Shown here: positions 1 through 30,410 of the stretch, piece by piece
Position numbering within the stretch: position 1 is the first letter of the stretch
How the letters are laid out: each line of letters starts with the position of its first letter
Source: a virus
Lineage: Duplodnaviria; Heunggongvirae; Uroviricota; Caudoviricetes
Length of the DNA: 64,000 nt
Strand: one strand, 5' to 3'
Virus record (IMG/VR): IMGVR_UViG_2513237361_000012
Coordinates: 1-64,000 of that record
Notes under the pieces: model-generated
The model's input: the letters and a program-made list of their open reading frames with translations, nothing else
Told to the model about the DNA's origin: nothing
The model's database searches: none
Position numbers and translations under genes: made by a program

Positions 1-318
1 TTATTGATTAAATGGCGCTTCGTGTTTAAGAACTTTATCGATAATGTCCAGTACGCCTTCATGGTTATTGGAGCCTGCACGGTATTTCGCCGCCGCTACG
101 ACTGCGTTGCCAGCATTTTCCATTGCAAAGCTAAAGCCCGCCTGACGCAGCATCTCAATATCATTACCGCCATCGCCAAAAACCACCACTTCGCTGTCGT
201 CTATGTCCCATAATTTCTGGAGTTGACGCAGGCCATTGGCTTTATGTACGCCGGGGATAATCAAATCGATACTACCGTTGCCGGTATGGACTGGCACCAT
301 AATATCTAAAGCGCGCAA
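1..318 (-). pseudogene. ybjI: HAD/Cof-type phosphatase gene, 3' portion (gene split by prophage insertion)
   Basis: Translation carries HAD motif (FGDGGNDIEM); matching 5' portion lies at 36250-36771; frame runs straight into prophage end. Confidence 0.8.
302..306. repeat. 5-bp target-site duplication (ATATC), copy 1
   Basis: ATATC at 302-306 and 36254-36258; codons GAT-AT (Asp-Ile) appear at the end of the 5' fragment and the start of the 3' fragment of the split HAD gene. Confidence 0.6.
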
Positions 319-323
319 AATTA

Positions 324-389
324 TTCAAGATAGATATGGAATTCTTTCAAGATAAGCCAGAAGCGCACATATGGAAGTTATTCAAGATA
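324..389 (+). repeat. Terminal repeat array, 3 x TTCAAGATA (mom-proximal end), candidate transposase binding sites
   Basis: TTCAAGATA at 324-332, 346-354, 381-389; same 9-mer in inverted orientation three times at the other prophage end. Confidence 0.55.
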
Positions 390-432
390 AAACAGCGGCA
401 TTGGCCGCTGCTTTTTTATTCATTAAGTGGGC

Positions 433-1170
433 TCACTTCGGGTATGGCTGAACCCTGAATAGCTTGGTGTTTAGGCGCTTTTTTGCGCGCTTATTCAGGA
501 ATCTGATGTAGCGATACTGATTAAATTTGTGTACCACGGCCCGCTCCTTATTAGCCCGCAAATACACACCTCGTTGCCCTCCGCGCTTAATCGCGTTCAT
601 CGCTATCTCGTGATACCACTCGCCGTCCAGTTCGTAGAACGTGCTTTCGTGGCTGCCTATAAAATCAAAATTCGACGCCTGATATACCACGCCAGCACGT
701 CCGCAGCGTTCATCTGCAAAGGACTGAACCCACTCCACTGACGGGTACAGTAACCTGATGGTTTTCAGCGCGTAGCTGATGGCCCGTGATTCAGAATTGC
801 GGGGCATGTCGTCGTGTAGCCACATGCGGTTCAGTTCCATATAGCCCCGGTTATCCGTTTCCAGCACAACACGACGCCCTGAGCTGGGGTTAAGGGCATA
901 TCCCCACTGAAGAACGCCAACCAGATCACGTCCGCTGAATACGCCCAGATGCAGGTAGGAGTTATTCACAAAACGGCGGGAATAGTGTTTTGTCTGAATG
1001 ATTGTGCGGGCCAGCCAGCAGGATATGGTTTCAACGCGCAGCTCCTTTGAACCATAGCCGACAATCCGGCCTTCATACTCAATAACGCAGGGTTTTGTCA
1101 GAATGCGTGATTTCTTCTCTTTTCCCACAATACAGCTCCGTGGGATGCTCTTTGGCATTCGATATGACAA
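433..1170 (-). CDS. mom: Mom DNA-modification protein (start codon uncertain)
   Basis: Translation matches the phage Mu Mom protein from memory; sits at distal prophage end directly downstream of and overlapping com. Confidence 0.8.
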
Positions 1171-1387: not shown

Positions 1388-1963
1388 TTAACCACCGGGC
1401 GTTAACGCTCTTACCTCGTCCAGCGTGGACAGCCGGGAAAGCTGCTCCTTCATTTCACGCTGGCGCTGATAAATCTCGTTATTGCGATCGACCTGTGCCT
1501 GAACCATTGCTGTAAGCAGTTCATCCAGTTTCTGCATCGACAGTTTCACCTGCTGGTTTTCCGCATCGCCCCATACCATGGTTTTTCGCGCTGTGTCAGA
1601 CTTTGATGCCATAACTGCCGGATAAAGACGAGCCATTGAGTCGGGGCCAGCGTTCCAGGTATGACCGTTCCATTCGAACGTGAACGGCAGTGCTTCCTGT
1701 TCTGTTCGCCACGCCTCGATTTCCCGCTTTTTGGCATCCTTCGCCGCGGCGATAAGTTCGGGTGTAATAGTGAACGGGGCGATTTCACCCCATTTGCCGC
1801 TCTGTAACTCTTCCCAGATGCGCTGGCCTGTCATTGCGGTATCATCCTGCATGGCGGTATACGGGACGAATTCCGTTTCACCTTCAAATAACACCTCGCA
1901 GTCAACCGCACCATTTTCAAGATAATGCGCGCTTCTGATGCCTTTTACCGCTCTGATTTTCAT
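1388..1963 (-). CDS. Tail fiber assembly protein (Tfa/U-like)
   Basis: Position immediately downstream of a tail-fiber gene; size and sequence character typical of Tfa chaperones. Confidence 0.65.
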   Translation of the reverse strand: MKIRAVKGIRSAHYLENGAVDCEVLFEGETEFVPYTAMQDDTAMTGQRIWEELQSGKWGEIAPFTITPELIAAAKDAKKREIEAWRTEQEALPFTFEWNGHTWNAGPDSMARLYPAVMASKSDTARKTMVWGDAENQQVKLSMQKLDELLTAMVQAQVDRNNEIYQRQREMKEQLSRLSTLDEVRALTPGG

Positions 1964-1977
1964 GTTTTATTTCCTCA

Positions 1978-4900
1978 TTACTCAATGCGCATGAACAGAC
2001 ACACATATCCGGTATCTCCACTTGATGTGGTCGACCTGCTCCCTGACAGAGCCTGATAGCGCCCTGGAAATGCTCCATGACGTGGGTCCGCTGCGCAGAA
2101 TTGCGGCGTTGAGACATAATTAGAAGCCTCACTCGCTTTGCAGGTGACAACCAGTGCTCCAAGCCGTGAGCCGGGAACAATATCGCCAAGCCCTATTTTT
2201 TTCTCTTTGTCATCTGCACTGCTCCCCCTGTAAACAGCAAGAATCGGCACACCCACTGCAGGATATTTGTAATATGAGTGCGTGCCGTTGCCCGCCGTCC
2301 TGGACAGCAGGAACGCCAGCGAATCGCCGTCGTAAATAATGGGGCTTACTGTTGCATTCCAGTTGTTTCCACTCCAGCGGTAAGTCAGGCGATGAATACT
2401 GTGCTCACCTTCGTAATACTGGTTAAAACACAGCAGTGTTTTGAATTTACGCGTTGTGTCCGATTCATCGTTATCAAAGGGCGACCACATCACATCAATG
2501 ATGCCGTTAAATTTCGTGGTGCCCGCCAGCAGCGTGGAAGAGTCCGCAATACTGACCGCATAACGCCCCGGCGTGGCCTCTTTCAGCCATTCAGCAAAAT
2601 CGGCCTGTCCGGTAAATGTCAGGGCATCGGTGCTGGTAAATGCCTGACCGAATCCATACATGCCGGACAGCGCCAGCCTGCCTGGTGTGCGGTCGCGGAT
2701 ATCGCTCTGGGGCTCCATCGTAGCAGCCGCTTTCAGCTCAAGCTCCGTGCGCATGGCTTCAGGCGTGTCCAGTGCCAGTAATGCGCGGGCTTTTTCTGAC
2801 AGTTGCGCCAGTAAAATCCGGCCCTCTTCACTGAAATAAGGCAGCGTGTTTTCTTCCGGTATTATCTGGCTGACAGCCGTTAACACGTCATTAAGCGGCT
2901 GTTTACCCGCCAGCGCCTTAGTGACCGTCGTCGCAAAATTAGGGTCGTTGCCCAGCGCCGCTGCCAGTTCGTTCAGCGTATCCAGGGCTTCCGGGGACGA
3001 GTCAACCAGTGCGGCAAGCAGTTTGCGGACAAACTCCGCATTGGCTATTTCATTACCTGCTGCGTCATCTGGCGGGGTTGGTGTTGTCGGTGCTCCGGTC
3101 AGTGCCGGGCTTTTCAGGGGCGCGCGTGCTTCAATCTGTGCAATGAGTGAAGCCTCATCAACCTTCAGGTTTTCCCAGCCAACCAGATAACCACCACCTG
3201 ATGCCACCGCGCAACGGTTATAATAAATATGACCATTAACACCGTAATAAATAATTATCTTATAGGCATACTCATCATTCGGGCTGGTTTTAGGTTGTGG
3301 CCAGATAATTTCAATAACACCGTTTGTCTGTATGCCAGGTACCACCACATTTGTGTCCGCAAATACGGTATAACGACCGGGCTTTGCTGTTTTTACCCAC
3401 CTGAGAAAATCAGTCCCTGATTTAAATTCAATTCTGTCGCTACTGGAAAATATTTTCCCGAAACCGAACATGCCAGGAATCGCCAGTCGGCCTTCGGTGC
3501 GGTCATAAATATTCTCCTGTGCATCCTTTTGTGCTGCATTGCCAAGTTGTGGCGTCAGATTCGTCCAGGTGACCGGGGCGGAGATATTATCGCCACGAAC
3601 GGTCATGAGTATCCGTCCGTCTTTTCCAAAAAACAGAACCAGCTTTGTTGCTGTCTGGCTGGTTTTATCGCCCCAGCCATTATCCAGCCAGATAATTTCT
3701 GTTATTCCGGTGGTTTCTTCCGTTCGCGTGGAAAAGGTGTAATACCGCCCCGGGTGCAGGTTGTGCGCAGTTCTGGCTACAGTCGCCATATCGCTGGCAA
3801 TAATTGAACGCGCTCCGGCGTCCGTCATTCCGTAACCATACGCACCGGGAAGCGCAACACGGCCTTCCGTGCTGTCGTAAAGGTCTGTCTGAATATCCCT
3901 TACCGCTGCGCTTTTCAGCTCAAGCTCATTGCGCATGGCTTCCACTGTGGCCTGTGCCAGCAGTGACCGGGCTTTTTCTGACAGCGGAGACAGTGAAGCA
4001 TTCCCGTCCTGATTAAAGCACAGAAGGTTATCTGCCCGCTCTTCCAGATTGCTGATAGCTGTCAGCACGTCGTTCAGCGGTTGTTTGCCTGCCAGCGCGT
4101 TCATGATTGTTGTCGCAAACTCCGGGTCATTGCCCAGCGCCGCTGCCAGCTCGTTCAGTGTGTCCAGGGCTTCCGGTGACGAGTCAACCAGTGCAGCAAG
4201 CAGTTTGCGGACAAAAGCCGCATTCGCTGTTTCCAGACCGGCAGCATCATCCGGTGGTGTTGGTGTGGTTGGCGTGCCGGTGAACGCCGGGCTGTCCAGT
4301 GGCGCTTTTGTTTTCGTCTCGTCCATGACGGTTTTGACAGCCTTTGGTGTGGCGGCCAGTTCTTCGCTGTCGTTGTCCGTATCACTACAGAGTTGCACCA
4401 GACCTTTTTCTGTCGTGGAAGCATTGCTTCCCTTCAGGTCATCAACTATCCGTTGTGCCTCGTCCCTGTGCTGTTTCGCGCTCTGCTCGCTTTTTGCTGC
4501 CGCTTCGGCGCTGGCTTTTGCCTCGCCGGTCAGCGTTGCTGCTTCACCGAGTTTATCGACCGCTTTCTGGACTATCTTATCGGCATCTTTGACCGCCTGT
4601 TCTGCCCGGGCGGCATTCTGGTTTGTTTCAGAGGCCAGCTCTTCAGCTTTCTGGACATTACTCGCAATTTCTTCTGCATCCTGCCGTATTTCCCCTGCGA
4701 GGGTTTCTGTATCCTGGCGGGCCTGTTCAGCAGCGTCCGCATGCTCTCTGGCTTTTTCTGCGCTTTGCTGCGCCTGTTGCGCCAGTTCCTCGAATTTCTT
4801 CAGGGCTTCCGGGCGCAGGTCAATATCGGTTGCCCCCAGAAAATCATTCAGCGAACCGTCTGTCGAATCTTCATAAACGCGAATGACACCGATTTCTGAA

Positions 4901-5099
4901 AGGCGCTGTGTGCTTTGTGTCAGGCGAACGCTGTACACACCCGGCAGAACGGGGAAGTCGTACTCCCCGCTCTGTGTGGTGACGTGGCTGAAAACACCTT
5001 TCAGAATCCCTGCGCGGTTGTGCAGGGAGGTCAGTGTAATGGTTGCGCCGCCCAGCGGTTCTCCCGTGGGCGTTTTAATCACACCTTTAAGCTGCGGCA
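1978..5099 (-). CDS. Side tail fiber protein, lambda Stf-like N-terminus, with internally duplicated conserved segment and several tip-like modules
   Basis: N-terminus resembles E. coli prophage Stf proteins; Ala/Glu-rich coiled-coil region; two copies of the ...PTTPTPPDDAAG...LDTLNELAAALGNDP... block; start set at MPQLKG just after upstream tfa stop. Confidence 0.75.
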
Positions 5100-5527
5100 T
5101 CGGGACGCTCCGGCCAGTTGATGGAATTAAAGGAGGCTTCATCGGTAACGGTGCTTAAATCCAGCGCCTTCAGTGATTTGATATGCGCCATCCACCGCGC
5201 CAGACGGGCTTTATCGTCATCGCTGATGATTCCCAGTTCCAGCTCAGTTTTCCAGTCGGAGGTGATTTCCCTTGCTTCAGCCAGCAGGTGCTGGCGTTGC
5301 GTTTCCGCTTTCTGCTGCCAGTTAATTACGGGTTCTTTTAATACCGGATATCCGTTTTCGCCAGATACAATAATAAAACCGTCAGTCTGGCCCTGTAACA
5401 GTCTCTGATATTCTTCATCCGTGATTTCCTGTAAATCATTCGGCCACGTTCCCGCATTTTCATAATCACCCTGAAGGCCAGAATGATAAAAACCGTTTGT
5501 TGATGGGCTGAAATAAATAGTCATCAT
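5087..5527 (-). CDS. Tail fiber assembly protein (Tfa/U-like)
   Basis: 146 aa, directly downstream of tail-fiber gene 5527-6414. Confidence 0.65.
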   Translation of the reverse strand: MMTIYFSPSTNGFYHSGLQGDYENAGTWPNDLQEITDEEYQRLLQGQTDGFIIVSGENGYPVLKEPVINWQQKAETQRQHLLAEAREITSDWKTELELGIISDDDKARLARWMAHIKSLKALDLSTVTDEASFNSINWPERPDAAA

Positions 5528-29885: not shown

Positions 29886-30410
29886 TTAAATACCGGCTTC
29901 CTGTTCAAACGGAATAATAGAAAAATCTTCAATACCTGATTTGACTGTAATTCCGGCAACACCTGCGACCGCTTTCGGTTCCAGTAAAATCGCTTCCTTG
30001 TTGATTTCCTGTTTCGTGCGAATAAAGCGTTGCAGGCCAAGACGCTCCAGCGTTTCCATCACCGCATCCACACCGCGAATACTTACCGATGGTGGGCGCT
30101 GACGCCATGACACATCACCGGTTACCAGGTTTGCCGTCTTCACCTTGCCGCCGTTCGTCAGTTCGTCACGGTTCGCTTCACACCACCCCTGAACGCCTTT
30201 TGAAAGGGTTTCAATACTGGTTTTAAGGGGTGCAATCTGTGAGGCGTATTTCTCCGTAATCTCAGCGATAGCGTCATTCATCTCCGTTTCAAGCCGTGCC
30301 GCTTCGCGTTGCAGGTCACCAATCCGGCGAATATCACATACCACGGCATCGCGGGATTGTGGAACATAAGCCGCTGCGGCGTTCTTGATTCGTTTTGCTG
30401 GTTTAGCCAT
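29886..30410 (-). CDS. gam: Gam host-nuclease inhibitor (Ku-like DNA end binding)
   Basis: 174 aa, near-identical over its length to phage Mu Gam as I recall it. Confidence 0.85.
   Translation of the reverse strand: MAKPAKRIKNAAAAYVPQSRDAVVCDIRRIGDLQREAARLETEMNDAIAEITEKYASQIAPLKTSIETLSKGVQGWCEANRDELTNGGKVKTANLVTGDVSWRQRPPSVSIRGVDAVMETLERLGLQRFIRTKQEINKEAILLEPKAVAGVAGITVKSGIEDFSIIPFEQEAGI

Follow-up and report, generated by a model that had tools for sequence, protein, structure and literature searches.

Six tip repeats of a Mu-like prophage as putative transposase sites of an Sp18-type transposition module with a probable switch in end specificity

Phage Mu serves as the model for replicative DDE transposition, and transposable prophages are recognised by rules taken from it: TG/CA termini, a 5-bp target duplication and 22-bp Iβγ sites. 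The prophage considered here lies in a stretch of 64,000 nucleotides of viral DNA, the whole of which is called the window, and it raises the question of which protein reads a 9-mer, TTCAAGATA, that stands three times at one of its ends and three times, inverted, at the other. A sequence-only reading had likened this layout to the L1-L3/R1-R3 transposase sites of Mu, and the coordinates and orientations that it gave for the six copies proved to be exact throughout. They are listed below together with a hairpin that adjoins one of them.

324..332, + strand: R1-equivalent 9-mer TTCAAGATA, nt 18-26 from the tip, a position constant in all relatives
346..354, + strand: R2-equivalent 9-mer, 22 bp from R1, like Mu R1-R2
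381..389, + strand: R3-equivalent 9-mer, oriented as R1 and R2
389..414, no strand: hairpin with a T-run on both strands (inverted repeat I3), adjoining R3; from its sequence probably the mom terminator
36106..36114, - strand: L3-equivalent 9-mer, nt 141-149 from the tip
36158..36166, - strand: L2-equivalent 9-mer, nt 89-97 from the tip
36229..36237, - strand: L1-equivalent 9-mer, nt 18-26 from the tip

The repeats are inverted between the two ends, and the three at each end all run the same way relative to the tip; their similarity reaches slightly past the 9-mer itself (AAATTATTCAAGATA, CCTATCTTGAAT). Exact TTCAAGATA occurs 7 times on the two strands of the 64 kb, where dinucleotide-preserving shuffles predict 0.35 copies; of 100 such shuffles none contained as many as seven. 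Six of the seven copies are gathered at the prophage tips, no more than 83 nt from the one and 149 nt from the other. The seventh (1916-1924, + strand) is found about 1.6 kb inside from the mom-side tip, in or near small ORFs downstream of the tail-fibre gene, and as a single extra copy it is compatible with chance. The L2 and L3 repeats are overlapped by a 55-aa ORF (36011-36178, - strand), which has no Pfam match and is probably not a gene.

The meaning of these positions depends on where the element begins and ends. The tips and the target duplication that encloses them are as follows.

303..306, no strand: left target-site duplication TATC, in host ybjI
307..323, + strand: outermost 17 nt on the mom side (Mu 'right end'), TAAAGCGCGCAAAATTA, with TA at the start; common to the STEC346 and IMG/VR copies, which have different flanks
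36238..36254, - strand: outermost 17 nt on the c side (Mu 'left end'); read inward from the tip they are TATGACTAGGTAATTTA, with TA at the start
36255..36258, no strand: right target-site duplication TATC

An alignment of independent insertions defines the prophage as 307-36254 (35,948 bp). Homology to host ybjI ends at 306; other insertions of the element, in the alanine racemase gene of E. coli STEC346 and in fliH of STEC388, have their common sequence from 307 and up to 36254, and past 36254 the three flanks (ybjI, STEC346 and STEC388) diverge in a three-way alignment. The stop of host homology and the independent insertions thus agree on both borders, and position 307, proposed by the sequence-only reading as the start, is the true terminus. 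The prophage splits ybjI, whose flanking parts (1-306 and 36259-36771, - strand) are about 92% identical to the E. coli gene, suggesting an Escherichia-like host outside E. coli proper. In E. coli genome annotation, ybjI is named as the 5-amino-6-(5-phospho-D-ribitylamino)uracil phosphatase gene. The window corresponds to contig AEME01000001.1 of NCBI assembly GCA_000208565.2.

Within these borders the element reads 5'-TAAAGCGCGC...CTAGTCATA-3', with a longer right end of ...CCTAGTCATA-3', and both tips begin 5'-TA inward. The termini are 5'-TA...TA-3' and not the 5'-TG...CA-3' of Mu-like phages, a departure that had been noticed from the sequence alone. The mom-side tip is TA in every member seen, next to 24 different flanks, and the window-type c-side tip, TATGACTAGG..., was found with nine different flanks (ybjI, the alanine racemase gene, fliH and six others). 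Terminal base 1 is an invariant T against about 27 different flanks, and base 2 is A in the window and G or A in Sp18-like relatives. Judged by the sites at which they are found, nine for the window type and five for TA-tipped Sp18-like variants, TA-ended elements are mobile. A comparison of L037-L039, L049 and L059 with L010, L041 and others shows that the c-side tips of Sp18-like phages are either TGTAACCAGG or TATAACCAGG, and each variant occurs at several insertion sites, indicating that close relatives which are apparently active differ at position 2 of the terminus. The tip sequence also has a perfect 12-nt inverted copy (309-320 / 481-492, AAGCGCGCAAAA / TTTTGCGCGCTT), the second arm of which falls in the 3' end of mom; since the 10-nt core of this copy has an exact match in only 4 of 9 relatives, it is probably no conserved or required part of the end.

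The length of the target duplication was obtained from paired insertions. The empty K-12 site (...CATAATATCGCCG...) has a single TATC and is regenerated without a gap when the element and one TATC are deleted. The window junction is ambiguous when taken alone, a 5-bp ATATC fitting as well, and the other six of seven pairs are unambiguously 4 bp, with four bases matching exactly and a mismatch at the fifth: GAAT in STEC346, CATC in the Sp18-like phage in LC727881 (annotated as 4-bp in GenBank and re-derived here), and AGTC, AACA, TGCC and ATCA in four IMG/VR pairs. A 5-bp duplication produced by a one-base shift of either tip was tried and fails in STEC346, LC727881 and all four IMG/VR pairs, so that only 4 bp suits all seven paired insertions in this family. 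Insertion at many unrelated sites with a short target duplication is what is found in transposable Mu-like phages, as are a DDE transposase of the MuA family and, next to its gene A, a gene for a MuB-like AAA+ target-delivery protein, both of which the element carries. Transposase A and two of its segments are listed here.

32954..35041, - strand: transposase A, 695 aa, MuA family, with a winged-helix Iα-like N-terminus, Iβ-like and Iγ-like regions, DDE core and Mu-transpos_C
34862..35041, - strand: residues 1-60 of A, Iα-like
34472..34681, - strand: codons 121-190 of A, which follow the repeat class, inside the Iβ-like end-binding subdomain (about 88-212)

The transposase has about 23% amino acid identity to MuA, and its DDE residues align with D269, D336 and E392 of MuA. 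Two Pfam models, HTH_Tnp_Mu_1 and Mu-transpos_C, score above their cut-offs, and a third, for the integrase core (rve), scores only below its curated one. An AlphaFold2 model of residues 1-290 (pLDDT 79.5) has its best PDB matches in the Mu transpososome 4FCY (probability 0.99) and MuA Iα (1TNS), with 2EZL also among the fold matches; Foldseek ranked the same PDB entries first with weak E-values, the match of the Iβ-like part concerns a small helical domain, and a profile search of PDB sequences with A found the Iα domain alone. On this model, residues 121-190 would sit in an Iβ-type end-binding domain, followed by an Iγ-like region at residues about 215-280. Of the two halves of each site in Mu, Iβ reportedly binds the end-distal one (Schumacher et al. 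1997, EMBO J 16:7532). The 9-mer likewise sits in the end-distal half of its putative site (nt 18-26). The bipartite end sites of Mu are read by MuA Iβ and Iγ together (PMC5961161, PMC3362531).

Relatives of the transposase are found in the Yersinia phages vB_YpM_5/vB_YpM_6 (85% identity), the Sp18-like Mu-like phages of EHEC (75%), a Klebsiella phage (56%), SuMu and Mannheimia phages (about 44%) and D3112-type phages (32%). A full-length transposase scan of genome contigs yielded only 2 close loci, and a scan of IMG/VR was much more productive. The element shares with modules of the Sp18/vB_YpM_5 type an A that is at least 75% identical, the conserved tip and a first repeat at nt 18. It departs from them in the end repeat, (A)TTTGATAC, of which the form TTTGATAY has 0 copies at the window ends against 6 of TTCAAGATA. 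As far as these sequences tell, TTCAAGATA is a separate specificity class, which the window has in common with 7 other loci.

The tips of vB_YpM_5 (TATGAAGAGGTAAATC... and ...GATTTTGCGCGCTTTA) resemble those of the window, the first 15 nt on the mom side being identical, and three repeats stand at the same positions of each end, but the repeat is ATTTGATAC, of the other class. In both classes the mom-side sites begin 18, 40 and 75 nt from the tip, with spacings of 22 and 35. These 9-mers and spacings are kept in L087, where the spacer sequence is unrelated, and in L053 the spacer is likewise divergent and the 9-mers and spacing are invariant. Every c-side end has its first site at nt 18, and the others are at 89/141 in the window class (including the divergent L053), at 113/165 in Sp18-like phages and at 122/164 in YpM_5-like ones. 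A weak A-rich element, CG/GC-AAAA, on the tip-proximal side is common to both repeat classes. Because the relatives keep the same tip and site positions and carry ATTTGATAC there, the TTCAAGATA copies are most likely half-sites of switched specificity.

How closely repeat and transposase change together was followed in those relatives that have readable upstream DNA, a sample that includes close relatives of one another. Identity to the window in residues 121-190 is at least 76% in 8 transposases, each of which goes with three copies of TTCAAGATA, and all 27 with the other allele of this segment (50% identity or less) have three copies of TTTGATAY and no TTCAAGATA. The 25 positions that discriminate between the classes, with no residue shared, all fall in 121-190, most densely in 131-140 and 171-190 (RTISRDPLYQWVLKY vs R.LS.ITLKRWIAAFNK), and the rest of residues 1-660 has 0. 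The flanking segments of A do not predict the repeat class, as is seen in L079 and vB_YpM_5, both of which belong to the other class despite about 93-100% identity to the window outside 121-190. In L079, identity to the window is 90% in residues 61-120, 94% in 191-260 and 100% in 261-660, compared to only 39% in 121-190, and its repeat is TTTGATAC.

Residues 1-60 vary independently of the repeat class: they are 53% identical in L013, L014 and L024-L028, all with TTCAAGATA ends, and 85% identical in vB_YpM_5, which lacks TTCAAGATA. This suggests that the Iα-like winged helix is a second exchangeable module, perhaps matched to the immunity/enhancer region. Despite such a possible match, the repressor of the window is of the CI type and not homologous to Iα.

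Other readings of the repeats have to be weighed against these data. If the ends were canonical Mu ends (TGTATTGATTCAC... / ...CGCCGCTTCA, with the 22-bp MuA consensus) at shifted coordinates, the 9-mers would be incidental, and the approximately 89% DNA identity to Mu in mom and com near the left tip could lead one to expect Mu-type ends nearby. The sequence-only reading had judged the 9-mer to differ from the Mu end-binding consensus, and the ends of Mu and SfMu, here read directly (TGTATTGATTCAC... and ...GCGCCGCTTCA), show no similarity to those of the prophage. A search at shifted coordinates found no canonical Mu end: no end sequence of Mu, SfMu or D108 lies at or near the window junctions, and no Mu-consensus site is present between the host junctions and the 9-mers. 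Similarity to Mu/SfMu DNA stops at window 381-408, about 75-100 nt before the tip and just beyond the 3' end of mom; furthermore, the junctions (306/307 and 36254/36255) are fixed by the empty site and the independent insertions, and the transposase is just 23% identical to MuA. The probability of this reading is practically negligible, and with unrelated ends and so distant an A the element is no Mu in the strict sense, which would have Mu ends with the 22-bp MuA consensus and a MuA orthologue. Hardly any credence is due to the idea that the repeats are products of chance or low complexity, or a functionless relic of local duplication. The motif is short, as that idea would allow, but its copy number exceeds the shuffled expectation (7 against 0.35), the 9-mers and their spacing stay invariant where spacers diverge (L087 and L053), and the element moves, its ends being the same at nine or more sites.

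It is very improbable that the 9-mers bind a protein other than the transposase, such as the CI-type repressor, Ner, or host IHF or Fis. Some of the repeats do lie downstream of the repressor gene; however, they stand at both tips, inverted and 35 kb apart, and none is found in the repressor-ner intergenic region (35317-35420), the expected place of an operator. The repeat class tracks the transposase segment and not the repressor, since window and vB_YpM_5 differ in their repeats with repressor DNA that is 79% identical, and sites for host factors would not switch between phages of the same hosts. Somewhat less improbable, and still unlikely, is a reading in which the transposase does recognise the 9-mers, through its Iγ-like subdomain or through both subdomains jointly, and 121-190 affects specificity only indirectly. 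The assignment to Iβ is based on covariation and on analogy with Mu, which leaves room for this reading, but residues 191-260 are 86-97% identical between the repeat classes and contain zero class-discriminating positions, and the discriminating residues are densest in helix 178-190, the pattern typical of a recognition helix.

Considering these data together, we regard it as very likely that the six TTCAAGATA copies are the end-distal half-sites of six putative L1-L3/R1-R3-type transposase sites, belonging to a module that is derived from the Sp18/vB_YpM_5 lineage and has a switched Iβ specificity. The transposition module (ends, repressor, ner, A and B) would come from that lineage and not from Mu. 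Each site would probably be bipartite, by analogy with Mu: the 9-mer may be read by the Iβ-like helix-turn-helix subdomain (about 88-212), and the tip-proximal CG/GC-AAAA is a candidate half-site for the conserved Iγ-like subdomain. The recognition region 121-190 would have been exchanged along with all six repeats, giving a specificity unlike that for the ATTTGATAC of the relatives. Six transposase protomers may occupy L1-L3 and R1-R3, with Iβ on the 9-mer and Iγ on the tip-proximal half, the transposase at L1, R1 and R2 may form a Mu-type transpososome with its MuB-like partner, and the 3'-OH of the terminal ...TA-3' would attack target phosphates 4 bp apart instead of 5.

The rest of the genome is a mosaic. 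The genes that bear on its relation to Mu are given below.

433..1170, - strand: mom, Pfam Mom, 96% aa identity to Mu Mom
29886..30410, - strand: gam, 92.5% aa identity to Mu Gam
31925..32878, - strand: gene for a MuB-like AAA+ transposition protein, 40% aa identity to Mu B, Pfam Phage-MuB_C and AAA_22
35044..35316, - strand: ner-like gene, HTH_35, 46% aa identity to Mu Ner; its product is probably 78 aa long, from an internal ATG start
35421..36008, + strand: repressor gene, CI/HTH_3 type and not Mu c type, DNA 79% identical to vB_YpM_5

Mu-like regions are limited to kil-gam-gemA and com-mom. Kil, gp8, gp9, gp11 and GemA have 81-88% amino acid identity to their Mu counterparts, mom and com, which lie beside the left tip, have about 89% DNA identity, and the structural proteins are only 26-50% identical at the amino acid level. 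The sequence-only reading had described Gam, Mom and Com as almost identical to those of Mu, which is apt for Mom and Gam and overstated for Com (73% aa identity). Its view that repressor and endolysin are not Mu-like agrees with a CI/HTH_3 repressor unrelated to Mu c and with the absence of a homologue of the Mu endolysin from the element; homologues of Mu Gin and U were not found in the element either. Over 2393-4314, the tail-fibre gene (1978-5142, - strand, in the region 1388-5142) has about 90% identity to its counterpart in Escherichia phage Rac-SA53, and together with the lack of Gin and U this suggests that the host-range module is not the invertible G segment of Mu. The same reading's overall proposal, a mosaic Mu-family phage with its own transposase-end specificity, is supported by a MuA-family A of 23% identity, by the unrelated ends and by the covariation of repeat and transposase.

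Phage vB_YpM_5 (L111, MT374853.1, 3700-8100) is essentially Mu, with a B that is 99.4% identical, in which an Sp18-type module has taken the place of the two ends, the repressor, ner and residues 1 to about 670 of A. Within A, the crossover is at Mu nt ~3227, and homology to Mu on the mom side stops at Mu nt 36598. Accordingly, the last 26 residues of its A are a MuA C-terminal tail beside Mu B, and the joint replacement of the ends and of c-ner-A suggests that the DNA-binding part of A and the ends are passed on together.

The lineage has been encountered in the literature from several sides. Six putative sites in Sp18 reportedly go back to Morgan et al. 2002. Sp18 was recognised as Mu-like (PMC2669165), and it is credited, second-hand and with no sequence given, with six putative transposase sites in a paper that cites its reference 18 for them (PMC2628397). 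Mu-like phages inserted in Stx phages were linked to Sp18 (PMC10132054), and the vB_YpM phages were published in a paper that contains no analysis of their ends (PMC10434027). TG-CA was described as conserved in all Mu-like and B3-like phages until the Leptospira cases, with duplications of 5 or 6 bp, and TA-TA was reported only in Leptospira, its existence in other bacteria being posed as a question (PMC8705779). Our literature search found no paper with either motif as a transposase site or with a 4-bp duplication, and LC727881, in its GenBank annotation, offers the sole trace of the latter. Within the known, poorly characterised Sp18-type lineage the element represents a new variant in specificity, and several properties of that lineage appear to be unreported, namely the mom-side TA in every member, the c-side TA in the window type and the 4-bp duplication.

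We lean towards a broader view, in which the Sp18/vB_YpM_5/window lineage would have functional ...TA-3' termini, a 4-bp stagger and an exchangeable Iβ cassette of 70 residues, with at least one switch between ATTTGATAC and TTCAAGATA. If so, this would be a MuA-family system that breaks two supposedly fixed Mu rules, the near-universal ...CA-3' and the 5-bp stagger, and it could supply orthogonal Mu-type transposase/end pairs for Mu-based tools. As the hosts of the lineage are Escherichia, Shigella and Yersinia, direct genetic tests of the role of the terminal dinucleotide would be possible, and an enterobacterial lineage in a genetically tractable host would answer the question of TA-TA ends elsewhere (PMC8705779). 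End specificity maps to one 70-residue segment, and near-isogenic partners of other specificity exist (vB_YpM_5 and L079). Prophage finders that require TG...CA and 5-bp repeats will misplace the borders of such elements.

Compared to phage Mu, the window has the same 22-bp R1-R2 spacing, three sites per end (putative here) with the first a few nt from the tip, a long spacer between L1 and L2/L3, near-random insertion with a short duplication, and a transposase with the same domain order (Iα winged helix, Iβ, Iγ, DDE core and Mu-transpos_C) and a MuB-like ATPase partner. The specific half-site occupies nt 18-26, compared to nt 20-27 in Mu R1 (CGCGAAAG); the Mu R2 half-site is TGCGAAAA at 42-49. 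On the other hand, R3 is inverted in Mu whereas the three mom-side sites of the window are co-oriented, Mu has TG...CA termini and a 5-bp duplication whereas the window has TA...TA and 4 bp, the ends have no sequence similarity, A is 23% identical to MuA and, unlike in Mu, the repressor is of the CI type without homology to the N-terminus of A. The Leptospira transposable prophages also have TA at both termini, but they differ in their B3/Tn552-type transposase, 6-bp duplication and unrelated hosts and genomes, as against MuA-type domains and 4 bp in the window (PMC8705779).

Sp18 of E. coli O157:H7 Sakai and the Sp18-like phages (in Stx phages LC727881 and LC727895) are nearer, with an A of 75% identity, three repeats per end, the first at nt 18, and the same mom-side TA and 4-bp duplication. 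They differ in the repeat, (A)TTTGATAC, in residues 121-190 of A (just 34-37% identical), in a c-side tip that is mostly TG, and in cargo and structural genes. The closest A is that of vB_YpM_5/vB_YpM_6 (Muvirus), which is 93-98% identical outside residues 61-190; these phages have TA at both tips, and 10 of the first 14 nt of their c-side tip match the window, but they carry ATTTGATAC as the repeat, and the remainder of their genome, B included, is that of Mu itself (95-100% aa identity). A transposase segment that binds DNA and the sites that it binds are also exchanged as a module in the heteroimmunity of Mu and D108, in which Iα and the operator/enhancer are exchanged and the ends are unchanged, whereas the exchanged parts in the lineage of the window would be Iβ and the end sites.
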